Of a DNA stretch of 64,000 bases, positions 13,377 to 49,317 are shown in pieces. This DNA comes from a virus. The notes under the pieces were generated by a model. That model was not told the origin of the DNA. It saw only the letters and a list, made by a program, of their open reading frames with translations, and did no database searches. The DNA lies in the IMG/VR virus record IMGVR_UViG_3300036790_000386, positions 37,928 through 101,927 of that record; one strand, 5' to 3'. Each line of letters starts with the position of its first letter. The stretch's first letter is position 1. A program made the translations under genes and the position numbers.

Positions 13377-13460
13377 TTTCCCGCGCGCGTTGCGCGCCTC
13401 GCCGCCTTCGGCGGCTCGCACAAACACAAAGAAGAATTAAGATTTATTACACCAGGCCCC
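13377..13460 (-). repeat. Dispersed double-hairpin element, copy 1
   Basis: GGGGCCTGGTG...TTTGTGTTTGTGCGA-hairpin-GAG-hairpin-GGAAA; four other copies in the window. Confidence 0.85.
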
Positions 13461-13463
13461 GAA

Positions 13464-13766
13464 CTAAATTTGTCCAAAATCAGTGGTGAAGTATAAATAG
13501 CCATTTGACCCAAAACTTGCGTAAGTTAGCGGAGCATCTGGATCATTTGCAGTTTGAACAAAAAAATCACCGCCGCCTGCAATATCTAAATAGCCATATT
13601 GTCGAAGAAGACCAATACCTGTAACAAGAGCAATACCTGCGACGATTGGGTTGTTAGATGAATCATTGATATCCATAATCCACTCTTGGCCGATATTATT
13701 CCATACAATTTTGAGATTGTAGGTTTCACCTCCGAGGGAGATTGTGAATTGTTGTGGAACACCCAT
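13464..13766 (-). CDS. Small baseplate protein
   Basis: QQFTISL...WIMDI...GIALVTG..LL.QY.YL; synteny. Confidence 0.7.
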   Translation of the reverse strand: MGVPQQFTISLGGETYNLKIVWNNIGQEWIMDINDSSNNPIVAGIALVTGIGLLRQYGYLDIAGGGDFFVQTANDPDAPLTYASFGSNGYLYFTTDFGQI

Positions 13767-13767
13767 A

Positions 13768-14493
13768 TTAACCTACATTTGGAAAAGTGTTACTAGATAA
13801 AGGTACCGTAGAAGCACCTGTTTGAATTGGAATTGTTTGAGCATTTGAGGGGGATGAAGTGGGTGCTGTAAATACACTGTTATAGGAAGAGGAGTTTAAA
13901 GCTGAAGGTGGAGTAGTTGTTTGAGCACCATTATTAGTTGTTGGTAGAGATGATTGAGGATTTGATTGGTTAGCTGGGTTAGACGAGATTGTTGTTGTTT
14001 GTGTGTTGACAATGAAGACTTGTTGAAGACTCATTTCAACGCGAAGCGCCCATTCGGATGTTTCATCCGTTTCGACAACTAAGCTTTGCATGAGTATGTT
14101 TTGATAAACACGCTTGCCTGTATAAAGAGTGAATGGTGCACGATCTGCTTGAAATTTAAGCAAATCTAAATAGATAGAATTAATATAATAGGGATCAAAG
14201 TTAAATGGAGCAGAGTTTGACCAACCTAAACGAAGTTGAACTTGAGCCGGGCGTTTGTAAGCGTGATCTGAGATGTTTGCGCCGGCTTCGATTGGGTGTT
14301 CAGTTATATAAAGTTCATCTCTGTGTTCTTCGCTTTCTGTTACGTCTGCAACAAAGTATAAGCCTCCAGATGGGCCGCCTGGAGATTCTGGGCCAATGGC
14401 CCGAAAAGGTACTGATGGCGTTAGAAAGACGGGGCCGATAACGGTGCCGCCAATACCTTGACCTGTGTTTGCGGTTGTTCCAGCACCTGACAT
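13768..14493 (-). CDS. Dit-like/tube-initiator baseplate protein
   Basis: ITEHPIE.GA.ISDHAYKRP and TGKRVYQN motifs. Confidence 0.75.
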   Translation of the reverse strand: MSGAGTTANTGQGIGGTVIGPVFLTPSVPFRAIGPESPGGPSGGLYFVADVTESEEHRDELYITEHPIEAGANISDHAYKRPAQVQLRLGWSNSAPFNFDPYYINSIYLDLLKFQADRAPFTLYTGKRVYQNILMQSLVVETDETSEWALRVEMSLQQVFIVNTQTTTISSNPANQSNPQSSLPTTNNGAQTTTPPSALNSSSYNSVFTAPTSSPSNAQTIPIQTGASTVPLSSNTFPNVG

Positions 14494-14494
14494 T

Positions 14495-17231: not shown

Positions 17232-17244
17232 TTAAACGCTCCAA

Positions 17245-31381: not shown

Positions 31382-31398
31382 GAAAAATTAATTTATAA

Positions 31399-33981: not shown

Positions 33982-33984
33982 AAT

Positions 33985-34224
33985 TTATTCAGACTTTTCA
34001 ATCTTGTTAAAATCTACGTAGAAGAAATCACCATTTTTAAATTCTTTAAAAACAGTGGAATTGGTCACATACATTTCAATTGCACCAGATGATGTAGCTT
34101 CCATAAAGCGCTGGTCTTCAGGAATCAAAGGATCGTATTGAGGTACGAATTTAAAACTTTTTCTAGCTAAATAACCATGATAATCGGTAGTAGAAATAAG
34201 TTGGAATTTCGCACGAACAGCCAT
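33985..34224 (-). CDS. Conserved small phage protein
   Basis: VRAKF...ED..F..AT.SG.I.M...FYVDF pattern. Confidence 0.6.
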   Translation of the reverse strand: MAVRAKFQLISTTDYHGYLARKSFKFVPQYDPLIPEDQRFMEATSSGAIEMYVTNSTVFKEFKNGDFFYVDFNKIEKSE

Positions 34225-34235
34225 GTTTAGTTTCC

Positions 34236-34493
34236 TTACTTATTACTAGACTCAATAGATCTACCAGATTCGCTTTTGTGTTTGCGCCAGCGTGCTTTGG
34301 CAGCTTTGATAGCAATTTGTTTTCGACGGCCTGGTGCTAGTTTTGAAGCGCGAGCCATGCCACCAAAGTGCCCTAAAGTAGCTGCTGCTTCTCGGGCAGA
34401 AGCTTCAACATCAGTATCAACAACTTTAACTGAAAAAGGAATTTCAGTAAAACTGTTATCACTAAAGTGAATATGGATATGCTTGGTTGCCAT
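34236..34493 (-). CDS. Small basic protein
   Basis: A..LG..GG.ARA.KL...RR..IA.KAA.ARW motif; HIHIH N-terminus. Confidence 0.65.
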   Translation of the reverse strand: MATKHIHIHFSDNSFTEIPFSVKVVDTDVEASAREAAATLGHFGGMARASKLAPGRRKQIAIKAAKARWRKHKSESGRSIESSNK

Positions 34494-34521
34494 AGGATTC
34501 TCTCAGAAAAAGATCCGATAT

Positions 34522-37500
34522 TTAAATGTGTTTGTTTAAGGCTCGCGTACCTTTAGGTACGATCCAAGTTCCTGGCTTTAAGACTCTTTCTTCAAGATCG
34601 CACGGAAAAGTAATTTTTGATGGAGAAGATAAAAATAGAATTTCTTCATCAGCTTTCGGCTGTTCACGTCCACGACGAATTCTAATTTCATTCATGAGAT
34701 GAACTACCTTTGCAACCTCTACTCTTTCTTTCCAACTTTCATATCTTGCAGTTTGTATTGCAAGCTGTTGTTCTTTGTCAATTTTAGCTTTACGTGCAAG
34801 TTTCTGCCATGTGGCCCATGTGCCACGACATGAAGTGACAATAAGACCAGCAACACACCTAGCAAGGTAATCAGATCCAGAGGAAAATACAGAATCGCGA
34901 CCTGCTTTAGTTATTGAACGTTCAAGATCGCCCATTTGATTGAGCATCTTAGCGTTTTCTAAGAGTTCTACTTCACCAGCCGCCAAAATTGGCATGAAAT
35001 CACGATAGATTTCAGGAAGCGTTAAAGAAGTTGGACTATAGATGATACCGTGAACGGAGAAATATTCTTTGGGCCAATTTCCACCAAAGTGATCACCTTC
35101 AATCTTTGCGATGCCATAGCTGCGCATAATAGAGCATATGTCAGCAATAGTTTTTTCAAGACTTTCTTGAATCGAATAATCTTTAACAAAATCTAACATC
35201 GCTACATTATCTTCAGCCATATGTGCGATAGCAAATGCTGGCCTCTCTGACGTTGACCCCGGTACGGCGAAGAAAGCAGAGTAAACTATGTTATTTGAAG
35301 GTGGCAGTTCAAGCCGGCCTTCAACTACGCAACGACCAATAACCCCACGCGAAGCATAAGAGGATTTAGTGAAGCTAGCTTTAATTTCATTCCACTTATA
35401 GCGCGCAAACGCCAAAGAGCAAACACAATCATCGTAAAGACCCTCGGGTGCTGTATATTTGATACCAGCGCGAGTGATTTCATAAGTGAAATCCTGCATT
35501 TCAGATTTAATCGGACCATCAGGAAAATGCACTTCATGAGTCTGAACCGACATCGCCAAACCTTCCATGAGGTTTTGCTTGGATGACGGATTTAAAATAT
35601 AACCTTCAAAGTTTTCGTAACCACCTTCTTGGAGTGACTCTAAAACTGGATCACCTAGCCCTGAACCATCAACAACACAAGGAGTGAGGTCACCAACGAT
35701 TTCTCTAACGAGTTTAACTGACTCTTTCCAAGATTTATTTTTCCAGCGATCAAAGTGGCAAACATAGCCATCTCGATCAAGACCAATGATAACGAACCAA
35801 GTTTTTTTACGAGCTAGATCAACTCCCCAAGCCACAGGAGACTCAGAACTAAGATTAGCAACACAGCGTAAAATATGGTCTTCACCGAATGGATTACCGT
35901 AATCGTCACTCGGCTCTGCAAGATAAAGTTCACGAAATACCGCATCTGGAAGTTGCTCTTTTAGGGATTTAACTTCAGAGTCTGACATAACACCACCTTC
36001 GATGGCGTCAAAAATTGTCAGTTTTGCGTAATGTAAATCGCTATCTTCTTCGTCCATCGTGGACTCAGCAAGACGCGCCATATTATAGAACCAGTTACGC
36101 TTTCCTTTAACGTTACCAATAATGATAGCAGCGCCTTGAGTCGCTGAAAGCGTAGAGCGAACAGCGTGCCAGGATAATTCCTTTACACGCGAAGCTTCAT
36201 CAATAACAGCACCATAAACATCTTCACCGAAAAGAGAATCAGGATTATCACCTGATTTAAACCAAAGAACAGCGCCATTCATTAAAGTTATTGTTTTGCG
36301 TTGTTCGTTAGTCATATAGCTGCCAGGAGTTAAATAGGTCTTCAACCGGCGAAAGGCAATATCAGCTTGATCTGAAATTGGAGCAACCCACCAATAGTTT
36401 CTATTGGTTGGGCCAAGCAAAGCCATTTCGGTAATCCAAACAATGGAACCGACGGTGTTATGTGTTGGTACGAAACCATTTGTAAGATACAGGTGTCTTG
36501 TATCTTCAACTTCAATACATTGCGCCTCCGCAATTCTAGAAAATTCAATTTTATTGAAAAATCTATTTCCAGTCTTCTTCATAGGCTTCATTAATTGAAG
36601 TTTACGAGGAAGCCTAAATGGAATAAGATTAGATGGCAAAATTAAAACTTGACGATAACGACCTCTACCGTGGCGCAATGTTCCAATTGGACTGCAATAT
36701 GACGCAGACTCATCATAAGTCTGTTTAACCATACCTCCTAAAGATTCTACAAGTTCTTTCACATCTTTTGCAAGTTGTTCAGAACTTTGTTCTAAGATTG
36801 GTTGGCCATGTTTATTTACTGATCCATCTGAATCCATAATTCCCTGAAGAATAGAAATTCTAATTTCCGTGGAATTATAAAGATAGGATATCGGAATAAA
36901 TTTCTGGTGAGAATAACAACCCCACAATTTCAGATTTTTTAAATAGCTGGCTATGTGTTGTTTTGCCTCTCTTATTTTAGCGGCAAATTTTCCACATGTA
37001 ATATGATAATCATACTGGTCTACGTGCCGCAAAAAATGGCCAGCAGGTAAGACTTTTTTAATTTCTTCTAAAATTTCAAAATCAGCAGAAGAAACTCTCA
37101 CAACTTCAGTTGTAAAATTGCCATCGCCAATAAGAATCCCTAAAAGATAAGGATCAATATCTATAGATTTAATTTCAAATTCAACTGGAGCACAATCAGG
37201 AACATATTGATACCTGAGCCAGCTACTTTTAAGATCTAAAAGTTCAGAAACTGCCCTAATTCTTGGTTTACCTTGATTATTATGAACTTCCCAAAGATGT
37301 TCTTTGTCGCATTCAACAATAGTTCCATCAACAAAAGTTATAGCATAAATCTCGCGCAAACCTTGCGGATGTATGGCTACAATTTTAGTAGCTTTACCAT
37401 TAGCTCCAAAAACAAAATCACCTACTTTCAGGTCTCCCATAAGTTTGGGACCTGCTGGTGTATAAATTTTTGAATCTAAAGGTTGAGCTTTACCTGCTTT

Positions 37501-37590
37501 TGAAGTTGCTTCAACTAGGGTAAATCGTTTGCCCGAAAATAGAGCGGCCTCTTGTTTCGGATACAACCCTGGTCTTGAATATTCAGGCAC
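34522..37590 (-). CDS. terL: Terminase large subunit with intein
   Basis: Split Walker A (SKAGK|T), WWVAP, Walker B VIDEA, GVDLAR and YDDCV. Confidence 0.92.
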   Translation of the reverse strand: MPEYSRPGLYPKQEAALFSGKRFTLVEATSKAGKAQPLDSKIYTPAGPKLMGDLKVGDFVFGANGKATKIVAIHPQGLREIYAITFVDGTIVECDKEHLWEVHNNQGKPRIRAVSELLDLKSSWLRYQYVPDCAPVEFEIKSIDIDPYLLGILIGDGNFTTEVVRVSSADFEILEEIKKVLPAGHFLRHVDQYDYHITCGKFAAKIREAKQHIASYLKNLKLWGCYSHQKFIPISYLYNSTEIRISILQGIMDSDGSVNKHGQPILEQSSEQLAKDVKELVESLGGMVKQTYDESASYCSPIGTLRHGRGRYRQVLILPSNLIPFRLPRKLQLMKPMKKTGNRFFNKIEFSRIAEAQCIEVEDTRHLYLTNGFVPTHNTVGSIVWITEMALLGPTNRNYWWVAPISDQADIAFRRLKTYLTPGSYMTNEQRKTITLMNGAVLWFKSGDNPDSLFGEDVYGAVIDEASRVKELSWHAVRSTLSATQGAAIIIGNVKGKRNWFYNMARLAESTMDEEDSDLHYAKLTIFDAIEGGVMSDSEVKSLKEQLPDAVFRELYLAEPSDDYGNPFGEDHILRCVANLSSESPVAWGVDLARKKTWFVIIGLDRDGYVCHFDRWKNKSWKESVKLVREIVGDLTPCVVDGSGLGDPVLESLQEGGYENFEGYILNPSSKQNLMEGLAMSVQTHEVHFPDGPIKSEMQDFTYEITRAGIKYTAPEGLYDDCVCSLAFARYKWNEIKASFTKSSYASRGVIGRCVVEGRLELPPSNNIVYSAFFAVPGSTSERPAFAIAHMAEDNVAMLDFVKDYSIQESLEKTIADICSIMRSYGIAKIEGDHFGGNWPKEYFSVHGIIYSPTSLTLPEIYRDFMPILAAGEVELLENAKMLNQMGDLERSITKAGRDSVFSSGSDYLARCVAGLIVTSCRGTWATWQKLARKAKIDKEQQLAIQTARYESWKERVEVAKVVHLMNEIRIRRGREQPKADEEILFLSSPSKITFPCDLEERVLKPGTWIVPKGTRALNKHI
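36457..37488 (-). mobile_element. Class 3 (Ala1, WCT) intein with LAGLIDADG homing endonuclease, 344 aa
   Basis: Starts AQPLDS and ends PTHN before Thr; block B HLW, block F QCIEV; LLGILIGDG and ILQGIMDSDG. Confidence 0.9.
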
Positions 37591-37739
37591 TTAAATCAAC
37601 ATTACATTTGCGCAAGCAAATGAAAAAATGACCAATAAGCGACATAAGCGACAACAATAAAAACAACTACTGCAATCAGAGTTAATTTAAACATATTATA
37701 CTGCTTTCGACTCTTGATGCTGATTCTTAATAAATCAAT

Positions 37740-37777
37740 AAAAAAGCGGAGAACTGCGCACTGGCAATCCTCCGCTA
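37740..37777 (-). terminator. Intrinsic terminator
   Basis: AGCGGAG...CTCCGCT hairpin followed by a T run on the minus strand. Confidence 0.55.
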
Positions 37778-37957
37778 AAGGTCAACAGGGAGAGGAAACT
37801 AACGCACGAACCGCAACAAGAAAACCAACAAGCCGATATGGAAAAGAAGAAGCTTTCGCCTACAGATTTTCCCAATCTACAAATTGAACTTATACCAGAG
37901 TGGGAAAGGTGGCAATAAGATATGAGAGAAATCTTCAAGACAAACACTAAAAGTAGT

Positions 37958-38431
37958 CTAAGCGACATACGATCCTGCCATGAAATTAGCAATTCTTTTC
38001 GCCTGTTCTGGTTCAATTGAATAAGCAATGGTAAGTAATCCTGTATTATGTAAAGTTGCAATTCTTTTTCGGTTAGTTTTTAAAAGCTTAGCTAAACGAA
38101 CCCAAGAGTAAAGATGTTTACCTGATACTGGAGCTACTAAAGCTCGCGCATGAAGTATGCGGCGTACAGTTGGATCAGGCACAAGAAGAACTAAATCTAA
38201 GATATCATCAATGAATTTAATTTCGTGTCCACCTGGTGGATTTGATTTTAAATTTGAACCTGATTGTTCTAAATCTGATGTAGGCCAACAAGCAGTTGGT
38301 ATTGTAGGCCCTGGCTTTGATACCGGCATACAAAGAAGTTTTTCACCAGCCCATCTAAGCCATGTGTCTACTTCGTAGATTTGGACTATTAATTTTTTAT
38401 TTTTTGGTCCATCTGTCGGCTGCGTACCCAT
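37958..38431 (-). CDS. DUF6362-like HTH protein
   Basis: RRILHARAL.....HLYSW.RLAK. Confidence 0.6.
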   Translation of the reverse strand: MGTQPTDGPKNKKLIVQIYEVDTWLRWAGEKLLCMPVSKPGPTIPTACWPTSDLEQSGSNLKSNPPGGHEIKFIDDILDLVLLVPDPTVRRILHARALVAPVSGKHLYSWVRLAKLLKTNRKRIATLHNTGLLTIAYSIEPEQAKRIANFMAGSYVA

Positions 38432-38580
38432 GTTTTTGCTCCAGGGTAAAAATCAACTAACAATCCAAAAGTAGATGATTTAGTTGCATAATAACAAGCG
38501 GAACTTCCATTCAAATATTGAACTAAGATATAATCAGTTCCATTTTTACCATAATATCTTGCGACAATTTTCATTTATAA

Positions 38581-38664
38581 TTTCACGCGCGCGTTGCGCG
38601 CCTCGCCGCCTTCGGCGGCTCGCACAAACACAAAGAAAAAATGGATTAAATTGTAACCAGGCCC
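38581..38664 (-). repeat. Dispersed double-hairpin element, copy 3
   Basis: Core nearly identical to copy 1. Confidence 0.85.
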
Positions 38665-38708
38665 AAACTTTTAATAGATTATGTTGGTGCTGAGGTTAAG
38701 TGTTAGTT

Positions 38709-39125
38709 TCATTTGCAAAAGATAGTCATCTTGTTATTGTTTATGTTGAGGGAAATTTGTTTGATAGCAGATTCGCCGAAAAGTATAAATGGCATATCTG
38801 TATCGGTCATGGTAGCGGTGATATTGTATAAATTGCAGTTGCCTAATTTGAGTTCTTTTACTGTAACAAAGTATTCTGGAATTCGTGCGCCGTCTGCGGT
38901 GGAAGCTGACTGTGAAGAAAGAGCAGGAATGCTGATGTTTAAAGATTTTGCAAGATATAATGGAATATTGAGATAGGAGGCGCCAGAGTCAATTAGAAAA
39001 ACAACAGGTTTGTTGTTGATGGATGCATCAACAAAATAGACGCCTACATCTGGGTCTGGGGGAATGGAAAGTGAGGAACAAGAAGCTAAAGAGAGAAGGA
39101 GAAGAAATGGCTTTAAAATTTTCAT
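38709..39125 (-). CDS. Retropepsin-like aspartyl protease, putative lipoprotein
   Basis: FLIDSGAS, TADG and ILFG motifs; LASC lipobox. Confidence 0.8.
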   Translation of the reverse strand: MKILKPFLLLLSLASCSSLSIPPDPDVGVYFVDASINNKPVVFLIDSGASYLNIPLYLAKSLNISIPALSSQSASTADGARIPEYFVTVKELKLGNCNLYNITATMTDTDMPFILFGESAIKQISLNINNNKMTIFCK

Positions 39126-39653
39126 TTATGTTATCTTTGAATGGATCAACCATTGTAAAATGTTGGTTGAATTAGGCTTAGCTTCTGCAAGTGATTTTAT
39201 TGTTTTTACTTTTACATCTAGTGATAGATGTTTGCAGATTTGAATTCCGATGGGATCGTAGTTTAGTTTGAAGGCACAACGAACTACGGGAAGATAAAGG
39301 TTAGTTAGTTTTAAAGTTCCATCTGGGTTATATTTAAGTTTGCATTCAATGACTAAAAGAGGTAGAGGCTTGTCTGTAGTGTAGTTGGGGACAAGGATGA
39401 AGTCAGGAGCGCAGATAAGGCCGGCGTTATAAGTGAACCAGGTTTGATACCAGATGTCATATCCGGGAAATGTTGTCAGTTCTTTGTTTAGTTTACGTTC
39501 GTAGTTGAGGCCCACGGCGCCTAAAGTTGAGGTGGCTTTACTTGAGGCGAAGCCGGGCGGTTTAATTTGGTGGGCATCTGTTATTAACATGCGGATCTTT
39601 TTCCACCGGGGCGCAGATTTTCGCTTCCTTCGTTTGGGCAAGATTAAATTCAT
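39126..39653 (-). CDS. PD-(D/E)XK nuclease
   Basis: G..YE, PDF and IECK motifs. Confidence 0.65.
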   Translation of the reverse strand: MNLILPKRRKRKSAPRWKKIRMLITDAHQIKPPGFASSKATSTLGAVGLNYERKLNKELTTFPGYDIWYQTWFTYNAGLICAPDFILVPNYTTDKPLPLLVIECKLKYNPDGTLKLTNLYLPVVRCAFKLNYDPIGIQICKHLSLDVKVKTIKSLAEAKPNSTNILQWLIHSKIT

Positions 39654-40333
39654 TTATTTTCTGGATCGTTAGATTTCTCAACCAAAGATTTAATTGGAGT
39701 TTGGTCATCTGTGAAATCAAGATCGATTGGAGGCTTGACGTGCTCAATAGTTTTTTCTTGAGGTTTTTTATTGGATTCAGCAAAGCGCGGTGCTCCGATA
39801 TTGAGAGTTATTTGAGTTGGATTGGTTGTAATTTGAACTGAAGCTTTTGGAGGAGAAACTGTTCTATCTCCTCCCATTTCAACGATTTTGCGAAGTTCTC
39901 CGACTGGCATTGCGGTGCGAAGTTCTTCGTCTTCTAGCCTGTGATTAAGTTCATCAAGAGCTGTTTCAGCCGCTGATTTAAGTTTTTCGTGAATTCGTTC
40001 ACCGTCTTCGATTTGGGCGGTAGTCATTTGATCGTTATAGTAGGAGAGAAGTTCTTGAAAAGCCGGATCTGCTTGGAGTTTAGAGATTCTGGAGGTGCTG
40101 GAAGAGCAGAGTTTAGCAACTTCCATTGCTTTATAGCCTTGAGCTAGTAGTTGGGCCATACGATGGTGAATGGCTCTGATTGATTGGAGTGGTTTGTGAG
40201 ATAGAAGAGAACCTGTACCTACTCTTAAGATGTCGTCTGGCGTTAGTTCGCGCACTAATTCAAAGCTGAGGCTTTTGAAAGCTCCGCGCTTAGGTAGGAG
40301 GCTGCTGAAATCGAAGCTTTCGTTGTCTGACAT
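39650..40333 (-). CDS. HTH protein, putative terminase small subunit
   Basis: HTH-like segment (AQLLAQG...EVAK...RISKL.ADPAF); upstream of terL. Confidence 0.45.
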   Translation of the reverse strand: MSDNESFDFSSLLPKRGAFKSLSFELVRELTPDDILRVGTGSLLSHKPLQSIRAIHHRMAQLLAQGYKAMEVAKLCSSSTSRISKLQADPAFQELLSYYNDQMTTAQIEDGERIHEKLKSAAETALDELNHRLEDEELRTAMPVGELRKIVEMGGDRTVSPPKASVQITTNPTQITLNIGAPRFAESNKKPQEKTIEHVKPPIDLDFTDDQTPIKSLVEKSNDPENK

Positions 40334-40342
40334 ATTTGGATT

Positions 40343-40516
40343 CTAGTTTTCTTTTGGTTTGAAAGAGCCTGTGAGCAAGAATTTTAGAAAGTCTTCTGGA
40401 GTATAGGCTGCGTTGGAAGCGATGCTGAGTTCGGCTGCTGTGACACGAAGCTGAAGGATGTTGGAGGCTTCAGTTTGAGTTAGAAAGATTAGTTCTGGGT
40501 TGGAGTCGTTTTCCAT
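40343..40516 (-). CDS. Hypothetical 57-aa protein (not in ORF track)
   Basis: MENDSNPELIFL...KPKEN with AAGGA RBS. Confidence 0.45.
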   Translation of the reverse strand: MENDSNPELIFLTQTEASNILQLRVTAAELSIASNAAYTPEDFLKFLLTGSFKPKEN

Positions 40517-40550
40517 TTTAGTTTCCTTCGGTTTTAGTGGGTTTTTGTCC

Positions 40551-40604
40551 GCTTTAGCATTCTGTTCGCTTTAGCGTTTTGGCGCGCTATGCTTTAGCGC
40601 GCTA
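40551..40604 (-). repeat. CTAAAGC short-repeat array (left)
   Basis: GCTTTAGC at 40551, 40568 and 40591, plus variants. Confidence 0.65.
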
Positions 40605-40789
40605 TTTTTTGGTATGTATTGAAAATCTTGATAATTTTATTTTTGAAAATTTTTGTATGTCCTTAAAAAGTATGGTTTAAGAAATAAGTCTGTGGGGGCC
40701 GCCCGAACAACTTTAAAAAGATTTTCGCTCTAAACCTTCTTAATGACCGCTCTCGCGGAGCGGTCACTATAAAAACCATCAACAAAAGA

Positions 40790-40818
40790 ATAGTATCAAG
40801 CCGCCGGCGGAGTGTCAA
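40790..40818 (-). promoter_or_regulatory. sigma70-like promoter
   Basis: TTGACA-N17-TACTAT. Confidence 0.65.
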
Positions 40819-40829
40819 GTGAAAATCAA

Positions 40830-41075
40830 CTACACAGCAGATTTTAATTTAACAATATAATTTTTCAAATCGCACGGCTTTATGCTGCACATGTTGATAA
40901 CCTGTTGAACCGCTTTAACATGAGACGTGTTCAATTTAATCTGTTGACCGTCGATGAAAAGCAACTCGCCATCAACACCACGCACTTTAACAGCTTGAAT
41001 ATCTAAACTTGTATGCCAAGCGATGACAACGCCATCTATTAGTAAATCAGACAAGTGAGACATGTTTTGTGACAT
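40830..41075 (-). CDS. Hypothetical protein
   Basis: AGGAG RBS. Confidence 0.5.
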   Translation of the reverse strand: MSQNMSHLSDLLIDGVVIAWHTSLDIQAVKVRGVDGELLFIDGQQIKLNTSHVKAVQQVINMCSIKPCDLKNYIVKLKSAV

Positions 41076-41085
41076 GATCTAGCTC

Positions 41086-41271
41086 CTATTGCTGATTAAA
41101 CTGGCAGGCGCAAACCATACGATACTTCAATAAAGCCGCGCGCTTGCTGTAAACAGAATTATCAGCCATCGGCTTGTATTCTCTGCTGACACTAAAAGAG
41201 AGCGTCAGCCTGCCAAGTTTAACAAATCTTAGGCCGCCAACTTTGCGCGTGGAAAAATTGAAAATGCCCAT
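41086..41271 (-). CDS. Hypothetical protein
   Basis: AAGGAG RBS before MGIFNF. Confidence 0.5.
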   Translation of the reverse strand: MGIFNFSTRKVGGLRFVKLGRLTLSFSVSREYKPMADNSVYSKRAALLKYRMVCACQFNQQ

Positions 41272-41519
41272 TTGACTTGGCTCCTTTTGATATAAGAACC
41301 TTAAATCAAACAATTTAACTAATCAAGCTTTAAACTAAAGAACCAATAAAATTTTTATTGTTTTTATTATCAGTTTTTTAATTTAAAATAGATGTAGGTT
41401 TTTAAATTAAAATAGACACAGGATTCTCAGACTGTTACAATTGAAAAAATCTAAGAAAAATAAACTACAAAACAACAATAAAGCGGCGCTCTCGCGCCGC
41501 CCTAATCCAGCATCAAACC

Positions 41520-41741
41520 TTACCAGTGAAACAAGCCGTCAAAGCCCAAATCAGGATATAGAGGCTCACAAGGCTCCTGCGGAGCCTTCTCATACATCCG
41601 AGGTTCCTGCGTAGCTTTCTCATACACAGACTCTCGCTTCAATTCTTCCTTGCGTGCCTTCTCACGAATGACAACACAACTCTCAATCAAATCTCTGTCT
41701 TTTTTCGACAATCCGTCAAAAATTTCGCGTAACGTTCCCAT
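41520..41741 (-). CDS. Hypothetical protein with short internal repeat
   Basis: YEKA.QEP occurs twice; RBS present. Confidence 0.5.
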   Translation of the reverse strand: MGTLREIFDGLSKKDRDLIESCVVIREKARKEELKRESVYEKATQEPRMYEKAPQEPCEPLYPDLGFDGLFHW

Positions 41742-41781
41742 AATTTCAGTCTCCTTTATGCAAAACTATGTTGCGAGACAA

Positions 41782-41847
41782 AAAATAAAAGAAAGAATAA
41801 GGCGCTCAAGGCGCTCAAGGCGCTCAAGGCGCTCCCGAAGGAGCGCC
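41782..41847 (-). terminator. Intrinsic terminator with 9-bp tandem expansion
   Basis: GGCGCTCC-TTCG-GGAGCGCC, then (TTGAGCGCC)x3, then a T-rich tail. Confidence 0.7.
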
Positions 41848-41864
41848 CTAAACCAAATCAACCC

Positions 41865-42470
41865 TTACAGGTCATCAAGCGCCAAGGCATCACTCTTTTC
41901 AACCTTAACCGCAGCCTTCGCCGCATACTCTGCCCGAACCTGAGCCTCCAGTTCCGCAAGGCGACCCGCATGCTTCGGCGACCCACCGATATGCGCCTTC
42001 ATAGCATTGCGCTTATCAAGGCTACCCTTACCCTTGGGCACCGGCTTGCCAATCGCAGCCGAAATCTCATCCAACAGCGCATCAAGCGCCTCATCACGAA
42101 TAGCCTCATCACTCGGACCACGCCCACGTGGCGCACCCAACACATAATTATCATAATACTCAGCAGCGCTCGCCTCATCCCAAGTCTTCTTATTGCGCTT
42201 AGCAAGCGAAATCATATTCGAAGTGCAACGCGAGCGAATGAAATTCGAATAATGGCCGGCTTCGTCGCCCGTCATAACATGCCCTTCGGCATACTTATCG
42301 GGAGCCACAACCGTCAAAACCTTATCAACGCCATCAACGTTAACGGTAAACTTAATCGTTGCAACGCCGCTCTCGTCGAAATCCTCTTCGCCAAAATTCT
42401 CACCCAAATCAGCCGCAGTCTCCTCAACAGCGACTTCAGTCTCAGTCTCATGTTCATGTTTGCGCGACAT
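41865..42470 (-). CDS. Hypothetical early protein with acidic N-terminus
   Basis: Own promoter, RBS and terminator. Confidence 0.7.
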   Translation of the reverse strand: MSRKHEHETETEVAVEETAADLGENFGEEDFDESGVATIKFTVNVDGVDKVLTVVAPDKYAEGHVMTGDEAGHYSNFIRSRCTSNMISLAKRNKKTWDEASAAEYYDNYVLGAPRGRGPSDEAIRDEALDALLDEISAAIGKPVPKGKGSLDKRNAMKAHIGGSPKHAGRLAELEAQVRAEYAAKAAVKVEKSDALALDDL

Positions 42471-42540
42471 ATTAGTTTCCTATAACAAAAATTGAAATTC
42501 CATTTAGCGAGCTAGCCTTAAGTCTCTCGCCATAAAAAGA

Positions 42541-42569
42541 AACCTAAGCTAAACAAGAAAGTATTGCAA
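42541..42569 (-). promoter_or_regulatory. sigma70-like promoter
   Basis: TTGCAA-N17-TAGGTT. Confidence 0.5.
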
Positions 42570-42580
42570 GCAAAAAAGAA

Positions 42581-42666
42581 CACTAAAGCGCGCTAAAGCG
42601 CTAAAGCACTAAAGCGAACACAAACAAAATTAAAGCACGCTAAAGCGTTAAAACAACACTAAAGCA
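42581..42666 (+). repeat. CTAAAGC short-repeat array (right)
   Basis: Six exact CTAAAGC copies plus variants. Confidence 0.75.
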
Positions 42667-42832
42667 GGCAGAGGCAATCCAGCAAGCCAGCACAAAGCAA
42701 AATTGCCCCTATATATAAGGACAAGCTAGGCCGGCCTAGAAACGCCTAGAAAACCCTTCCTTTCCAGCCTGCCCTAGACAAAAAGAAACCCAGCCTAAGC
42801 CGGGTCCTTTCCTTTCACGCTACAGCCTAGAA

Positions 42833-43066
42833 CTATGCGGCCTTAAGCCGCCTCTTCCCCGGCTTTCCTGGCTTCCTCTTCTCTGCCTCCTGGCGCTCTC
42901 TTTCTAGCATCGCATTGTGCCTCTTCGTTTCCTCGCTCTCTTCCCACTCTTCCACCCTTCCCACCAAACAATAAACAGGCAACAGCACACTAGCAACACT
43001 TCCACAATAAAACGATCTATAAACAACCTCATTTTCCAAAACAAACGCTGGCAATCTATAACCCAT
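42833..43066 (-). CDS. Hypothetical protein
   Basis: ORF followed by a terminator hairpin at about 42781-42808. Confidence 0.4.
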   Translation of the reverse strand: MGYRLPAFVLENEVVYRSFYCGSVASVLLPVYCLVGRVEEWEESEETKRHNAMLERERQEAEKRKPGKPGKRRLKAA

Positions 43067-43307
43067 AACCCTAATCCTTCATTTAAACTTCATTAAAACC
43101 AAAAGCACAATAAACCAATCTTTAACAAAACACAAGTTAAACCCAACTAAACTATAATGATAGAAAGACTAACCTTCAAGGTTAGAACAACACAACCCAA
43201 CAAATCATCCAAAATTTAAAACAAAACACCAGCACGAAAGCTGACCCATAAATTCAAAACCAAGCTAAACCTTTGAAATCATTACAGAAAACAGCCCTAA
43301 TCGCTCA

Positions 43308-43551
43308 ATATATAGGTTGATGTTTAGTACAATTGACACTAGGGCATAGGCATGTGTGAGCGAGATTTGAGACACTATAATCTATCTTTCTATATATATA
43401 TCTATATTATATCTTCTTTTTTTTTTTTAGATAGTTTTTTAAAAGCAACTCCCTCCTACCGTGCTAACTCTGCCTTAGTCTCACGTGTCTCATTATCTAG
43501 AATTCATGCATATGCCACCCTTTCAATTGTACTAAACATCGACCTATATAT
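43308..43551. repeat. Long inverted repeat around AT-rich core (candidate replication origin)
   Basis: 29-bp arms at 43308-43336 and 43523-43551 with one mismatch, plus nested shorter arms. Confidence 0.8.
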
Positions 43552-43714
43552 CTACCTCAAAACCCTCTTTTCCCTAACCTTTTCAAAGGCTTACGGGTCA
43601 AAAAAATAAATGACCCAGCTTTGGCACTTGTGCGCTTGCTAAGCCTTCGCGCTTGTGCTAATTTCTCCTTTAAATACATACACTTAGAAAAATTTCTCTT
43701 ACTCTTTAAACCAC

Positions 43715-43743
43715 TTGCAACAAATCTAAATGAAGCCTATAAT
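43715..43743 (+). promoter_or_regulatory. sigma70-like early promoter
   Basis: TTGCAA-N17-TATAAT. Confidence 0.75.
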
Positions 43744-43795
43744 TTCAAGGCTTAGTTAACTCTAACGTGCCAGATGGCACAACAAGGTTTAAGCC

Positions 43796-45148
43796 ATGAG
43801 CGACACAACAGATTTAAGCCAAGAACAAAACCTAATTAAAGAACTAGCCAGACTAGAGCACGCCATTGGCGTGCCATCTTGGCAAGGTCTTTTAGCAAAC
43901 ATTACCGCTAACAATAGATTTAGCGTTCAAGCTTGGCTGACAACTAAAAAATTAAGCTATTCTGGCGTTTTTAAAGCACGCGATGCTTCATTGTTGCGAG
44001 CATACAATAACTACAATTATTTCAACGTTTGGCTTTCAAACGAACAAAATAGAACTCCAAAAACAACTAGCTCTCATTCAAATCAAACTCTAGATTTCTT
44101 TGACTTAGAATTTGACACAACAGCAGCTAGCAAAAAATCAACCTCTAATTCAAATGCCCTAGACGTTGAACAAATTGAAACAATCGCGCGCGAAGCAGCT
44201 AAGCATACAATCAAATTAGACGTCCCCGCGCTTGTTGCTGCTGAACTAGAGAATAAAAATGTTACAATAAGCGCCAACGTTAAAGCCCAAATCAAGGCTC
44301 TAGCGATAGCTGCTGCTATTGAACAAATCGAAGCTAACAAACAACCATCAACAATCGAAATTTATAACCCAGAAACGGAAACAAGAAAAAATATCGGCGT
44401 TCAACACTTCAAATTCCCTACTCTATTGCGTGCTTGCTGTGCTCGGCTTCCTAACGGTTTCCGGCCCAATGTTTGGCTGACCGGCCCAGCCGGTTCTGGA
44501 AAAACAACGGCTGCTGAAAAGGTTGCAGAAGCCTTAAATATGCCATTTGCAAGCAACGGCTCCTTAGACGCAGACTACAAGGTAGTCGGCTTTAAGGACG
44601 CAAACGGCAATTTTCAATCAACAGAATTTTTGTCAATTTTTGAAAACGGCGGAATTTATTGCGCCGACGAAATTGACAACTGGCATAGCGGAGCGCTTTT
44701 AGCCCTTAACGCTGGCCTAGCAAACGGCTTCATAGCCACGCCCCGAGGCATGATTAAACGCCACCCAGATTGCATTGTAATCGCATGTGCAAACACTTGG
44801 GGCTTAGGCGCTAACTCAGAATACGTAGGAAGAGTAAAGCTTGACGCAGCCTCTTTAGACCGCTTCTTTCCTAAAATCGATTGGCCGATTGACGAGCAAC
44901 TAGAACGCGCAATCGCCACCAAACTTAAATGGTGCAATCTTGTTCAAGCAACACGCTCTAAAGCAAAAAAACACGGCTTAAAAATTCTGATCACACCGCG
45001 CGCAACCTTTGCCGGGTGCGCTCTCTTAGAAGCCGGTTTCACGCTCTATGAAACAATCAATATGACACTGGCCGCAGGCCTATCCTCCCAGCAACTAACC
45101 TCTATCGGCCTGTCAGATGTAGCAGACTTAGAAGAATATCGGGATTAA
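43796..45148 (+). CDS. MoxR/CobS-like AAA+ ATPase
   Basis: GPAGSGKTT, ADEID, ANT.G.G and LDAASLDRF motifs. Confidence 0.85.
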   Translation: MSDTTDLSQEQNLIKELARLEHAIGVPSWQGLLANITANNRFSVQAWLTTKKLSYSGVFKARDASLLRAYNNYNYFNVWLSNEQNRTPKTTSSHSNQTLDFFDLEFDTTAASKKSTSNSNALDVEQIETIAREAAKHTIKLDVPALVAAELENKNVTISANVKAQIKALAIAAAIEQIEANKQPSTIEIYNPETETRKNIGVQHFKFPTLLRACCARLPNGFRPNVWLTGPAGSGKTTAAEKVAEALNMPFASNGSLDADYKVVGFKDANGNFQSTEFLSIFENGGIYCADEIDNWHSGALLALNAGLANGFIATPRGMIKRHPDCIVIACANTWGLGANSEYVGRVKLDAASLDRFFPKIDWPIDEQLERAIATKLKWCNLVQATRSKAKKHGLKILITPRATFAGCALLEAGFTLYETINMTLAAGLSSQQLTSIGLSDVADLEEYRD

Positions 45149-45152
45149 AGCC

Positions 45153-45968
45153 ATGTTGAAAAGATATGATAGCATTGCCGATTTAACTCAAGCTGCAATA
45201 AATTTCAATATCCGCAATAACTACGCATTCAAATCTAACTCAGATATGGGCTCATCTTGGTTCAATAACGAAACCATTGAACAGTGTTTAACCTACGCTG
45301 CTTTTGGTAACGACAATCTTGTTCCAGAAGCAGAACGCTACATCGAACAACTAAACACAGACATGGAAGTCAAGCGGCCGGAGTGGATACCTTCACCAGC
45401 CGGCGCTTTCCCTTCCGTGCCAGACTATTGCCGTGGCTTGCCTTGTTCAATGCGTCGGCAATCATTCGAACCAAACGACAACGCCAAAATAAACATAATT
45501 GTCACAACGACATGCAGCGGTGGCATTGACGCCAAAACACAAGCCAAACGCGGCGCGGCAATTCTAGCCCTAATCATAAAGCTAGCAGCTGCGCGCCCCA
45601 TTGCCCTTTACCATCTTGCTACAACGCACGGCGTAGACAATGGCGAAACTCTTCTCTTAACCGAACTAAACACCGCGCCACTAGACCTCGCCAGCGCCTG
45701 CTACGTGTTAACATCCGCTGGCTTTGACCGCTACATAACTCACCACGTCGCCTATCACTTAAACGGCTTCAATGGCTCTTGGCCTAAGAACTACGAGGGA
45801 AAAGAAGAGCAATTTTATCGTGAATTGATACCACGCCTCGGCTTCAATCCAGCCGACACAATTTTCGTCAAACCCACCTACTTAACTGATCCAATTGTCT
45901 CTAAGCCGCTTTTGTGGGTGACTGAACAAATAGAGCGTTTCAACAATCTAATTGAAGAGGAACAATAA
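45153..45968 (+). CDS. vWA-like partner of the AAA+ ATPase
   Basis: Adjacent to the ATPase; GAFPSVPDY..G.P.SM and degenerate MIDAS-like TTCSG. Confidence 0.55.
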   Translation: MLKRYDSIADLTQAAINFNIRNNYAFKSNSDMGSSWFNNETIEQCLTYAAFGNDNLVPEAERYIEQLNTDMEVKRPEWIPSPAGAFPSVPDYCRGLPCSMRRQSFEPNDNAKINIIVTTTCSGGIDAKTQAKRGAAILALIIKLAAARPIALYHLATTHGVDNGETLLLTELNTAPLDLASACYVLTSAGFDRYITHHVAYHLNGFNGSWPKNYEGKEEQFYRELIPRLGFNPADTIFVKPTYLTDPIVSKPLLWVTEQIERFNNLIEEEQ

Positions 45969-46278
45969 AATGACCTCAAACACGGACAAAAAATTAAAAA
46001 TGACCCCCGATATAAATACAGAGCTAGAAAGGCAAATTGCCGAAAAAATCCTAGCTAACGCTATCCAGGCCCGCAAGGTTCAAGCTTTTGATATGATATC
46101 CCTAATTTTGAGAGGCGACACCTATCTAGCAGCTGCTAGCTACAAAAACACAGCACAAACTATAGAAAGCATACATAACCACACAAATAGAGACATAAAG
46201 AAGTATAAAGACGAATTTTTAAAAAGATATCCAGACTAAAGACGGATTACATAAAACTGGCACTGGCGAAAACAATTC

Positions 46279-46365
46279 GGGGCTGGTGTCAATTTTATAC
46301 AATCTTCTTTTTGTGGTTGTGCGAGCGCGACTTGTCGCGCGAGGCCGCCGTAAGGCGGCGGGAAA
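46279..46365 (+). repeat. Dispersed double-hairpin element, copy 4 (opposite orientation)
   Basis: GGGGCTGGTG...TTTGTGGTTGTGCGA-GCGCGA(CTTG)TCGCGC-GAG-GCCGCC(GTAA)GGCGGC-GGGAAA. Confidence 0.85.
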
Positions 46366-46403
46366 TTAAACGAAAGTGAAATTATAGAACGGAGAAACCT
46401 AAA

Positions 46404-46925
46404 ATGACTAAAACCAAAAAAAGAGCTAAATTAAAAAATCATACAATAAATGGGACAAAGGATCTTTCTATGAAACCGTGTTCAGTTATTGGTAAAATTC
46501 TCACACCACTAGAACAGTCTACTAGACTGAAGCTAGAATCAATTCTTGAGGAACAGCGTCAAAAAGAAGCCGCACTCATAAAGCTTGAAATTGTTGTCAC
46601 TTTATCCCTCGACACAGGACAACTTATTTTCGACAATGGTAGACATTTAATTGAACACGAACCTGACGGTCCAACAGGCCAATATTTATTGGCTGCGTTA
46701 AGAAACCAGAAAAAACTATTCGATAAACAGCGCTCAGAGAGAATTTCAAAGCATACATCTATTTCAAAACATGACCCACAAATAGAAGTACAAACAAAAC
46801 TTGTTATTTCAAATTACGTCAATCTTGGGTCAGGCAAAGGTAAAGTAAGAATAGAAGAAAAGGTTTCTGGTTTAAAAAAACAGCCAATTGTAACGTTAGC
46901 TTTAAGTGACCTTTTAGAACTTTGA
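46404..46925 (+). CDS. Hypothetical protein
   Basis: GGAG RBS. Confidence 0.55.
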   Translation: MTKTKKRAKLKNHTINGTKDLSMKPCSVIGKILTPLEQSTRLKLESILEEQRQKEAALIKLEIVVTLSLDTGQLIFDNGRHLIEHEPDGPTGQYLLAALRNQKKLFDKQRSERISKHTSISKHDPQIEVQTKLVISNYVNLGSGKGKVRIEEKVSGLKKQPIVTLALSDLLEL

Positions 46926-47387
46926 TTAATAAATGTAGACATTGTGAGGCGCACCCTAACTTGCGCCTCCATATGTGTATGTTTGTTGATGCTTACCGCC
47001 AAGCTTCTTATTACCTCACACCAATTATAAGGAACAATCAAATGAAACAAGCAATAACAACAAGCCATCATACAACCTCCGACGGTAACACTAGAATAAC
47101 AGTTAAATGCTGGAGCGGTAAATTAACCGTTAACTATAATCAAGGTTTATGTTCTGAAATAAATCATTGGAATGCTGCGAAAGCTTTAATTCTAAAAATG
47201 GGCTGGGTTAGCGCTGATTTCTCTGGTAATTGGTTATGCGGTGAAACTCCAGAAGCAACTGGCTATGTTTATGTTTATGATGACGGAGACGATAAATATA
47301 CCAGATATGTTTATGATGATTCTGTATAAAAATTATTGATGCTCTAACTGCCAATATAATCTCAATCTATAACAGAAAGCCAATAAC

Positions 47388-47648
47388 ATGATCTATCCCA
47401 TTGTTAACCTTAACGGCACCAGCCGATCCGAACTCTTCGATCTCAATTACGAAGCTCTAAGAGTAATCGAAAAAGCTTTAAACACGCTTCAAAAAGCAGC
47501 ACCGCATTGGAGTGACTATCCCAACGGTGACTACCGTGGCGCAAGAGCCGAACATGATGAGCGATTCTTAAAGCTCTCCCACATGCAAAGCGATTTCACG
47601 GACCTCTGCATGAAACTTCACCCCAACAACAAATCTGACGGCGGTTAG
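47388..47648 (+). CDS. Hypothetical early protein (paralogue of 50053..50301)
   Basis: Shared P...N.T...EL, AAPH..DY and EH.ER..KL. Confidence 0.6.
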   Translation: MIYPIVNLNGTSRSELFDLNYEALRVIEKALNTLQKAAPHWSDYPNGDYRGARAEHDERFLKLSHMQSDFTDLCMKLHPNNKSDGG

Positions 47649-48783
47649 AGCTTAACGAGACCGGCCACATGGCGTAGCCATTTCTAGTCCGGTTTTATTA
47701 AACCCTATGCTTGCTGCTAACCTACAACAACCGGAGCCAATCATGACCGAAGAGTACAATTCAATTGCATTAACACCTGCTAAAACAGCTAAGCTTAAAA
47801 TCGGAGATAAAATTGTTTGCATTAAATCAGGTGACTTCAGATACTCTCTTGAAGTTGATAAAGTTTATGAAATCATTGGTTTTTATGAAACTAAAAATGG
47901 AAGACTAAAGTATCCTGCAATTAATATAAGTGGTACTTATCCGTGGAATTTTATTCTCAATGATATTGATTGTGGTTGCTTCTCAAATTTTGACTCCGAT
48001 GCTTGCCGGCAAGGGGATTAAATGACAAAAGAAGAAATTTTCAGAGCAATTCAAAATGAACAACGAATAGGTTTAATTATTATTGCAGATTTAATTAATT
48101 ATAACTCTGATGCAAAAACAGTTAATCAATTGTTGCGTTTCTACAAAGAAGTTAAAGAAGCAATGGAACAAGTAGAGCGTAATCTTGAATATTTTTTAAA
48201 AATGCTTGAAGATAAAAAGGAACAAATAAATGAAACAAACATTTTATAAAAACATTGCAACTGCTGTTTCAAATTTAGGAAAAGCAAATAAAAGTGTAAT
48301 CGCAATTCAAACTGATCCAATCTTTTTTTCTTACGAGCGAACCAAACAATATAAAACAACAACAGACAATTTAAGAGCATACCCAATACTAAGACTTTTA
48401 GCCTTGATTGCTTTTATCTTTGTGCTTCTATGTTTTTCACTTTCTAGTGCGTTGCTTGTGACTGTTTTGATTTTGCGCCAATTCTAAACAAAAAGGAAAT
48501 AAACAATGGCTGACGATAACATAAATATTATCTATATTGATACAGGTGAACGTCGAGATAAAACCTACCTCACTGATGGTGTTTATGTAGATCATGATGA
48601 CATGCAAATGTGGCTTTCAGCGGAACGCGACGGTAAACTGCATGAAATTGCAGTAGATCATAATGTTCTTAATGCATTGTTGAATTACGCAAGACGTTTA
48701 GGTTATTTCGGCACTTAAAGTTTAATGAAACTAAAGCTTTTATTCGCTTTAGTTTCGGTCAACTACAGACAAGGATTTAGGAT

Positions 48784-49134
48784 ATGAAAGCCTTAATTCT
48801 AATTTGCGGTTTAACGGCTATATCTATTCAACCAACACTAGCAACAACAACACAGTACAATCCAAACAACACAAGTGACTGGTGGGTTGAGTCGGATGTT
48901 GCTTTTGAATGTGTTCATCCTGCTTTAAGCCCAAATGATCTTTTAAAGTTTGAACAAACTCACGGCATGCATATACTAGCTGCCGGTGGTGGCAATGTTT
49001 TAAACGTTATTTATTGGTCACCGGGCGCAAATTCTGATCAAGATAATACTATGTATTTTCATAATCAGTCTGATTGTTTATATTACTATAATATACCTCA
49101 AACTCAACTGCCAGTGCAGCCATTAAATCAATAA
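48784..49134 (+). CDS. Putative exported protein
   Basis: Signal-peptide-like N-terminus. Confidence 0.5.
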   Translation: MKALILICGLTAISIQPTLATTTQYNPNNTSDWWVESDVAFECVHPALSPNDLLKFEQTHGMHILAAGGGNVLNVIYWSPGANSDQDNTMYFHNQSDCLYYYNIPQTQLPVQPLNQ

Positions 49135-49228
49135 TGCTTGCCGATAAGTGTATAAGTTATATTTTATTGTTTATTCAGATAACTAGCTCATTTTTATATC
49201 TGATATGCTAAATTTGATTAACTTATAA

Positions 49229-49317
49229 TTTCACGGCCGCCTTCGGCGTCCCTCGCGCTCTTTCAGAGCGCTCGCACAAACACAAAAAGAAGATAGAATT
49301 TTATCACACCAGGCCCC
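49229..49317 (-). repeat. Dispersed double-hairpin element, copy 5
   Basis: Same flanks; hairpin GCGCTCT-GAA-AGAGCGC. Confidence 0.85.

Follow-up and report, generated by a model that had tools for sequence, protein, structure and literature searches.

Ten dispersed double-hairpin elements in a 102-kb phage genome as candidate priming sites for the phage's own RepB'-family primase

What function could keep a structured element of about 90 nt, with two GC-rich hairpins, at scattered sites along a phage genome? The question is raised by a 64,000-nt stretch of DNA (the window), bases 37928-101927 of the 101,927-bp IMG/VR phage record IMGVR_UViG_3300036790_000386. An earlier note on the letters of the window had described five copies of the element, and all five were recovered at the places claimed (extents within 13373-49317). 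Five is the right number for the window but not for the genome, which holds exactly ten. Here, the element is interpreted by analogy as a single-stranded DNA (ssDNA) priming site for the RepB'-family primase that the phage itself encodes, a reading that we consider possible rather than probable. Coordinates below are those of the window unless the genome is named.

The copies share one layout. From 5' to 3', a GGGG(C)CTGG box, which one of the ten lacks, is followed by an AT-rich spacer, the core, hairpin 1, GA(G), hairpin 2, and a G(T/G)GAAA(T/C)T block, after which ATAA often comes next. The order of parts proposed in the earlier note is true of the five window copies. The core, TTTGTG(T/G)TTGTGCGAG, is exact in 10/10 genomic copies, with the two GC hairpins directly 3' of it, and its ..GTGCGA is invariant in all ten. 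In the window, the 16-mer TTTGTGKTTGTGCGAG has five exact occurrences; with up to three mismatches it has nine matches against 1.3 expected, a number reached by none of 100 shuffles. A covariance model built from the ten copies (R1), which is blind to diverged copies in relatives, retrieves the same ten at 76-119 bits and scores the rest of the genome at 14 bits or less.

The stems differ between copies and stay paired, as had been claimed. In a model-based alignment of the ten genomic copies, 99.1% of the 110 pair cells are Watson-Crick, and 9 of the 11 stem pairs vary on both sides, none on one side only, and none as a G-U (wobble) pair. These covariation values were reached by 0/500 shuffles, and slid-register controls gave 19-55% pairing. 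No variation is seen in the first G-C pair of either hairpin or in the CGA that precedes it. The phage has 11 distinct hairpins, of which the GCCGCC-GAA-GGCGGC module stands first in five copies and second in one, and 19 of the genome's 40 GC-rich perfect hairpins lie within the ten elements. At gathering thresholds, Rfam matched only three transfer RNAs (tRNAs) in the whole window and nothing at the element; at E<=5, no match overlapped the element in window 31000-50000, which includes four of the five copies. The view that this is an unrecognised structured element is borne out by the strong stem covariation and the lack of an Rfam match. Neither a match to Rfam or to a terminator family nor a lack of covariation, the outcomes named beforehand as telling against that view, was found. 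An intrinsic terminator was rejected, with no T run after the hairpins on either strand; genuine hairpin-plus-T-run terminators occur elsewhere in the genome.

The loops distinguish the two strands. Sense-strand loops are GAA, GCA, GTA, GGA-type, GTAA, CTTG, and AAC. Of 14 distinct hairpins, counting those of relatives, 9 have G-N(-N)-A loops with a C-G or T-A closing pair on the sense strand and none has such a loop on the complementary strand, a rule that is also true of copies antisense to genes. These loops belong to the "mini-hairpin" class of GCGNAGC/GCGNNAGC (PMC13037366). Since they always lie on the sense strand, this is the strand selected to fold, as RNA or as ssDNA. The available parameter sets take no account of GNA mini-hairpins, and nearest-neighbour energies accordingly show no difference between sense and antisense. 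A 16-mer that does not vary, perfect stems, and loops specific to one strand together indicate purifying selection on a function.

A candidate reader of such a strand is encoded outside the window. The open reading frame (ORF) at genome 22978-23892 encodes a RepB'-family primase. When this protein and three homologues were combined in a profile, RSF1010 RepB' (3H20) was matched at E=1.7e-15 across both domains; the catalytic DD, D, and R are invariant, as is the RepB'-specific motif II Gln (PMC5862659). The best Foldseek matches of its AlphaFold model (mean predicted local distance difference test score, 81.7) are 3H20 and 3H25. Six-frame searches of the genome found no DnaG zinc-ribbon, Toprim, or Prim-Pol domain, so the RepB'-family protein is its only recognisable primase. 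The gene that PHROGs labels "primase" has a Pfam match to DUF3987 only, which we take to be a helicase-type domain, and a primase domain is absent from it.

Two copies of the element lie inside the primase ORF, at genome 23231 on the plus strand and 23601 on the minus strand, and form an inverted pair about 340 bp apart. The earlier statement that all copies are intergenic is therefore correct for the five in the window and fails for these two. Both are in frame and have exact cores and perfect hairpins that are unique to them. Residues 86-100 and 198-222, exactly those that they encode, are the only two stretches predicted with low confidence in the model; the element-encoded insertions span residues of about 85-102 and 192-219, one after motif I and the other in the interdomain linker. 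Both inserted peptides are common to the homologue P0003 (47-49% identity) and are absent from P0006 (46% identity) and from every more distant homologue. P0154, a primase encoded on a 98-kb contig, likewise has no inserts. The in-gene copies are thus lineage-specific insertions that were later kept.

Among primases, only the RepB' family is known to depend on a signal made up of a tail and a hairpin (PMC8567376). RSF1010 RepB' initiates only on ssiA and ssiB, two 40-nt inverted repeats on complementary strands, where it binds a sequence-specific 5' tail of six nucleotides and the first hairpin base pair and hardly touches the rest of the hairpin, with the start, T32, lying just 3' (PMC8567376). 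The ssi hairpin holds a CCGAAGG GAA-triloop mini-hairpin that RepB' does not contact (PMC13037366). The ssiA and ssiB sequences, CCGAAGG included, were confirmed in IncQ plasmids. The phage resembles RSF1010 in several respects. Each replicon encodes its own RepB'-family primase, and in each a fixed flank and an invariant first pair adjoin a GC hairpin that is otherwise free. A C-GAA-G triloop is common to both (the commonest phage hairpin, GCCGCCGAAGGCGGC, contains CCGAAGG), as is an inverted pair on complementary strands. In contrast to the 40-nt sites of RSF1010, of which there are two at oriV, the phage element is about 90 nt long, with an added GGGGCCTGG box and AT-rich spacer, and has ten copies over 102 kb. 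The phage pair is located inside the primase reading frame, whereas that of RSF1010 lies beside iterons and an AT-rich stretch; the iteron-like repeats of the phage (40550-42666) are about 57 kb from the primase-gene pair.

Inverted repeats near RepB'-type genes were also sought elsewhere. A scan of JGI metagenomes with the primase alignment yielded 80 loci, all about 30% identical and in other kinds of replicon; inverted repeats lay near the primase gene in 4 of 45 loci, and a stricter hairpin-pair scan found nothing. One soil-metagenome locus with a distant RepB' homologue (L093) has inverted repeats at 8480-8526 and 9106-9152, about 1 kb upstream of its primase gene. The repeat consists of a conserved 20-nt flank and a 12-bp GC hairpin with a compensatory change, the flanks point outward as in the phage, and the pair looks like an ssiA/ssiB analogue.

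Modelled on RSF1010 RepB' acting on ssiA and ssiB, priming in the phage might proceed as follows. On unwinding of the DNA, both GC mini-hairpins, with GNA or GNNA loops, would snap back. The primase would then read the invariant single-stranded ..TGTGCGA together with the invariant first G-C pair and would make a primer near the hairpins. The inverted pair in the primase gene would be a two-strand start or turn-around site similar to ssiA/ssiB, and the eight dispersed copies, the window five among them, would provide the same primase with complementary-strand starts along the 102-kb genome. We infer by analogy each of these parts: the primase as reader, the start base of the primer, and the replication scheme. 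Slightly less likely is the fuller proposal that a site-specific RepB'-type (archaeo-eukaryotic) enzyme is the sole primase of this tailed double-stranded DNA phage, and that replication depends on a genome-wide network of structured priming signals that co-evolves with the enzyme and includes the origin-like pair in its gene, in which case the same nucleotides would serve as protein linker and DNA signal.

The five window copies illustrate how the element is placed. Copy c6 (13373-13460, genome 51300-51387, minus strand, 109 bits) takes up the 91 nt that separate a 100-aa ORF from the baseplate-hub gene. Its GGGGCCTGG box is at 13460-13452 and its core 16-mer at 13430-13415; hairpin 1 is GCCGCC-GAA-GGCGGC (13415-13401), hairpin 2 is GCGCGC-AAC-GCGCGC (13397-13383), and GGGAAACTGA follows before the ATG at 13372. 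Copy c2 (genome 5416-5500), on the opposite strand and 46 kb away, has no differences from c6 over 85 nt. Copy c7 (31392-31486, genome 69319-69413, minus strand, 103 bits) lies 3' of the portal gene and two small ORFs and 5' of a 167-aa ORF. Its hairpins are GGGCGC-GTAA-GCGCCC and GCCGCC-GAA-GGCGGC, the second being the module placed first in c6 and c8. Copy c8 (38575-38664, genome 76502-76591, minus strand, 110 bits) has both hairpins of c6, and an ATG follows immediately at 38574. About 0.8 kb downstream of it, ahead of the terminase gene, is a strong hairpin-plus-T-run terminator (37776-37745).

Copy c9 (46279-46387, genome 84206-84314, plus strand, 76.5 bits) is sense to and upstream of a 173-aa ORF (ATG 46404) and has a variant 5' box, GGGGCTGG, a variant core, TTTGTGGTTGTGCGAG, and a second GTGAAATTATAG box at 46376-46387. 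Its hairpins are GCGCGA-CTTG-TCGCGC and then GCCGCC-GTAA-GGCGGC. Copy c10 (49223-49317, genome 87150-87244, minus strand, 90 bits) lies in a 305-nt gap, antisense to the plus-strand genes on both sides. It has GCGCTCT-GAA-AGAGCGC as hairpin 1 and GGACGCC-GAA-GGCGGCC, with one A.G mismatch, as hairpin 2; the imperfect GCCGCC-type stem belongs here, not in the copy at 46279 to which it had been assigned. Copies c9 and c10 form an inverted pair 2.9 kb apart, and every one of the three plus-strand copies in the genome has a minus-strand partner within 3 kb (p about 0.04 by our own estimate). Beside another copy, c5, an exact inverted GGGGCCTGG box (CCAGGCCCC) occurs at genome 36598-36614, 14 nt upstream of the c5 box; the two can pair as a 9-bp hairpin, a feature unique to c5.

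Relatives show which of these sites are old. One fragment of 40 kb, G001, is collinear with the structural module, its proteins being 60-75% identical, and has three diverged copies of the form GGGGCCTGG .. GGGA(A)TTTTTCC(C/T)-TGTG(T/C)CTGTG .. GCGAG, one hairpin, GACAGCCAA. Two of them lie at junctions orthologous to those of c6, ahead of the baseplate hub, and of c7, following the portal. A second fragment has one of the G001 copies again, and a third contig breaks inside a copy. In G001 copy c, the hairpin is an ACGCC-GNA-GGCGG variant with an A.G mismatch, as in c10. The spacing from GGCCTGG to the core is 23 in one phage and 14 in the other, a difference of 9 nt. The position and the motif blocks of the element are therefore old and under selection, and the copies at orthologous junctions argue against a recently mobile element.

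The comparison of filled and empty sites gave both outcomes: the c6 and c7 junctions are filled in G001, whereas the c1 and c2 junctions are empty in G004, a 29.9-kb early-region fragment of the same lineage. In the phage, c1 (minus) and c2 (plus) bracket a 1.1-kb cassette of two small ORFs and MazG (genome 4200-5514); in G004 the element is absent from this place, which is taken up by just one unrelated ORF of 84 aa. Another variable block, of eight genes, is bracketed by c9 and c10. Elsewhere, G004 contains four TGTGYCTGTG cores against 0.2 expected, of which one has a hairpin and lies between convergent genes, one is antisense, and two are hairpin-less. In IMG/VR, the exact core 16-mer gave 34 single matches, all hairpin-less and taken as chance, and the two-box pattern was found only in G001 and in two lysozyme-gene coincidences. 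Megablast and blastn searches of the region and the element against GenBank phages gave no match, and no close relative of this phage was found there. Contig L141 of a relative begins (1-30) inside an element hairpin, and the repeats probably break metagenome assemblies of this lineage for that reason.

How well does priming account for these observations? The earlier note had offered a priming signal as one option among several, and it has since gained real support from the encoded RepB'-family primase and the inverted in-frame pair in its gene. Priming is also favoured because the sense-strand loops are kept even in gene-antisense copies, because no wobble pair occurs among the 110 pair cells, because the copies include three inverted pairs, and because the genome has no recognisable RNA polymerase or sigma factor. 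A number of points weigh against it. The orientation follows the genes in 7/10 copies and in 3/3 of G001, and the hairpin end mostly abuts a start codon, as a promoter or 5' leader would. The two hairpin-less cores of G004 are sense and 22-28 nt upstream of ATGs, which suggests that the core can work without hairpins and is start-associated. The T of the GTG 3' of hairpin 2, the candidate place for a primer to start, is present in only 6/10 copies. Ten sites per 102 kb would entail very long lagging-strand pieces. The likeness to ssiA and ssiB, judged by eye with no alignment or search against IncQ plasmids, is confined to the 7-nt triloop segment; the phage element has two tandem hairpins (one in the relative) against one in RSF1010, and the conserved flanks face outward in the in-gene pair but inward in RSF1010. 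The link to the primase gene is one locus, noticed post hoc, and has no comparative counterpart: no relatives of the replication module turned up in IMG/VR when the primase alignment, PolA, or the helicase served as query, and no relative was obtained in which primase and element change together. Orientation cannot separate priming from a promoter, since forks co-directional with transcription put lagging-strand sites on the sense strand: the lagging-strand template of such forks fits 8/10 copies and the direction of the genes 7/10. Cumulative GC skew was too noisy for placing an origin.

A close rival, almost as likely and calling for equal reserve, is that the element is a middle or late promoter specific to the phage, with a structured 5' leader. 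Its 5' half (GGGGCCTGG, the T-rich spacer, and YYTGTGYYTGTG) would recruit the host RNA polymerase via a phage factor, and transcription would start near GCGAG, placing the hairpins at the extreme 5' end of the mRNA. There they could shield the message from 5'-end-dependent decay or serve as a signal for processing or for put-like antitermination, and antisense copies in the early region would give shut-off antisense RNAs. In the phage and in G001, a sense copy and its start codon are separated by 9-47 nt that include a Shine-Dalgarno site, all four late-region copies are sense, and all three antisense copies are in early or middle regions. The start-proximal cores of G004 fit a promoter, as do the copies kept at orthologous module boundaries, and GNRA and CUUG loops are also familiar as stable tetraloops of RNA. 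With its fixed block of about 20 nt, then a stem-loop, an AT-rich leader, and a ribosome-binding site with ATG, the element recalls the leaders of T7 class III promoters. The earlier note's argument that placement in both early and late regions speaks against a promoter is weak, given hairpin-less cores just upstream of starts in the relative. However, no sigma-70-like -35/-10 is present in the element, and neither a phage RNA polymerase nor, in a six-frame search of the genome, a sigma r2 or r4 domain was found; ORFs of more than 400 aa are all otherwise assigned or glycine-rich and fibre-like. A box-core spacing of 23 versus 14 nt would not be tolerable for a two-box promoter, a transcript from c8 would reach a strong terminator after about 0.8 kb, and no stem contains a G-U pair. 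The two intact in-frame copies in the primase gene, one of them antisense, would also be left unexplained. Known promoter classes were rejected individually. A sigma-70 consensus scan (-35/-10, 16-18 bp spacing) calls nothing inside the elements, while good TTGCAA-N17-TATAAT promoters exist elsewhere in the genome (for example, 43715-43743). Sigma-54 and Bacteroidetes -7/-33 readings both failed. The giant virion RNA polymerase gene of an N4-type system is not present, nor is a T7-like polymerase, the 920-aa and 1018-aa ORFs being glycine-rich fibre-like proteins.

Two less likely alternatives remain. The element might be a selfish or recombination repeat, with no dedicated part in priming or transcription, that spread or was homogenised by gene conversion and marks the borders of exchangeable cassettes in the manner of the PeSL cassettes of T4-type phages, its in-gene copies being tolerated insertions in permissive loops, as with Rickettsia palindromic elements. 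We regard this as improbable. Identical hairpins in five copies and the identity of c2 and c6 across 46 kb in inverted orientation are what such a repeat would produce, and inverted copies bracket both the MazG cassette that replaces the 84-aa ORF of G004 and the variable eight-gene block between c9 and c10. The lineage-specific in-gene copies, in low-confidence segments of the model, and the contig of a relative that breaks inside the element point the same way. Against this, there are exactly ten copies and none has decayed, the conservation at junctions between proteins 60-75% identical extends to position and motif blocks, and purifying selection is indicated by the features described above. 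Terminal inverted repeats, target duplications, and an associated transposase or homing nuclease are all absent. The small mobile element suggested in the earlier note is disfavoured on the same grounds, and a miniature inverted-repeat transposable element in particular was rejected, since GGGGCCTGG and GAAATTATAA, which form the ends, are not inverted repeats of one another and no target-site duplication flanks the element. Less probable still is a binding site, as extruded hairpins or duplex, for some other phage protein, such as a T5-like nicking enzyme, the ParB-methyltransferase, or a packaging or recombination factor. Fixed sequence does adjoin structure-only hairpins, the phage has ParB-like/methyltransferase, PD-(D/E)XK exonuclease, and Sak4-like proteins, and c2 is directly upstream of the Sak4-like gene, but none of these proteins is linked to the element, which also lacks a palindromic duplex site.

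Several other systems combine hairpins with dispersed or conserved sequence. PeSL cassettes of T4-type phages are repeated intergenic blocks, promoter-like and with a stem-loop, around variable gene cassettes, in which a sigma-70 early promoter comes after a terminator-like stem-loop. The phage element likewise joins a promoter-like block to a stem-loop and brackets variable cassettes; unlike PeSLs, it has its parts in the reverse order, does not contain a sigma-70 consensus, and occurs in late operons and within a gene as well. In the put RNAs of HK022, two stem-loops lie side by side in the nascent RNA, in the sense direction of long operons; their stems are longer, with conserved bulges, and they occur only just downstream of the early promoters PL and PR. 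No similarity between put and the element was found, and the relative phage has just one hairpin. In the complementary-strand origins of G4, St-1, and alpha3 and in plasmid ssi sites, hairpins stable in ssDNA, including the GCGAAAGC type, mark the primase start on SSB-coated strands (PMC13037366). Sites of the G4/phiX type use host DnaG or the PriA primosome, are single sites in small replicons, and have other sequences, whereas the candidate reader in the phage is an AEP-type primase. The promoters of the N4 virion RNA polymerase have a 5-7 bp stem and a 3-nt purine loop (GGA/GAA) and are recognised single-stranded (PMC13037366). They are similar in having a short stem and purine triloop that adjoin conserved bases; however, the N4 hairpin is on the template strand upstream of +1, an arrangement that here would transcribe away from the downstream genes. 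Finally, SAS/ESAS of Cluster K mycobacteriophages is a dispersed asymmetric repeat, nearly always in one orientation just upstream of starts, often with an inverted repeat, which is conserved across subclusters and whose function is unknown (PMC3203893). SAS is a 13-bp box that contains the ribosome-binding site 3-7 bp from the ATG of non-structural genes only (PMC3203893). In contrast, the phage core is 40-60 nt from the ATG, its hairpins covary, and copies lie in structural operons and in a coding frame.

If the priming interpretation is correct, ten dispersed sites would mean that site-specific, "leading-strand-only" priming scales to 100-kb genomes, and the phage would offer a defined enzyme-and-site pair that is easily tested in vitro. 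We found no publication that describes RepB'-type signals dispersed in a phage, and to our knowledge RepB'-type priming on complex hairpin signals is limited to small two-site IncQ plasmids. A cis signal would, moreover, be written in the reading frame of its own reader protein; the lambda origin, which lies inside gene O, is a comparable case of dual coding. If the promoter interpretation is correct instead, the element would represent a new class of phage promoter or leader that is recognised without a known sigma factor or RNA polymerase, an outcome also useful for annotating uncultured phages. On either interpretation, the element is a lineage marker and an assembly-breaking repeat.

The genome in which the element resides has a 127-bp terminal repeat and the gene content of a tailed phage with a contractile tail. 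The minus strand encodes the terminase with its intein, the portal, a DUF2213 protease, a DUF3383 sheath-like protein, a tail lysozyme, the baseplate hub, and glycine-rich fibres. The plus strand carries replication and early genes, namely a split PolA, the DUF3987 helicase, a PD-(D/E)XK exonuclease, a Sak4-like ATPase, MazG, and a ParB-methyltransferase. Sigma-70-like promoters, Shine-Dalgarno sites, and hairpin-plus-T-run terminators are also found. The iteron-like repeats, (C/T)GCTTTAG(C/T)G, form a cluster of six copies at 42581-42666 (minus strand) and one of three at 40550-40599 (plus strand); the clusters are inverted, about 2 kb apart, in a divergent early control region, and could be operators or origin iterons. 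The presumed large terminase (34522-37590, minus strand), so named by its position beside the portal and unmatched by terminase families, owes its length of 1022 aa to a LAGLIDADG-type intein (matched by Pfam LAGLIDADG_3 and the NCBIfam intein C-terminal region), and its G001 orthologue, without an intein, has 678 aa. The portal (31801-33981, minus strand) has a C-terminal inorganic pyrophosphatase-like domain (PF18823, E=3e-19). A PHROG "RNA-binding protein" match lies at genome 85-759, and the tRNA genes are at 59860-59929, 60196-60269, and 61950-62021, amid long non-coding stretches (58000-62100).

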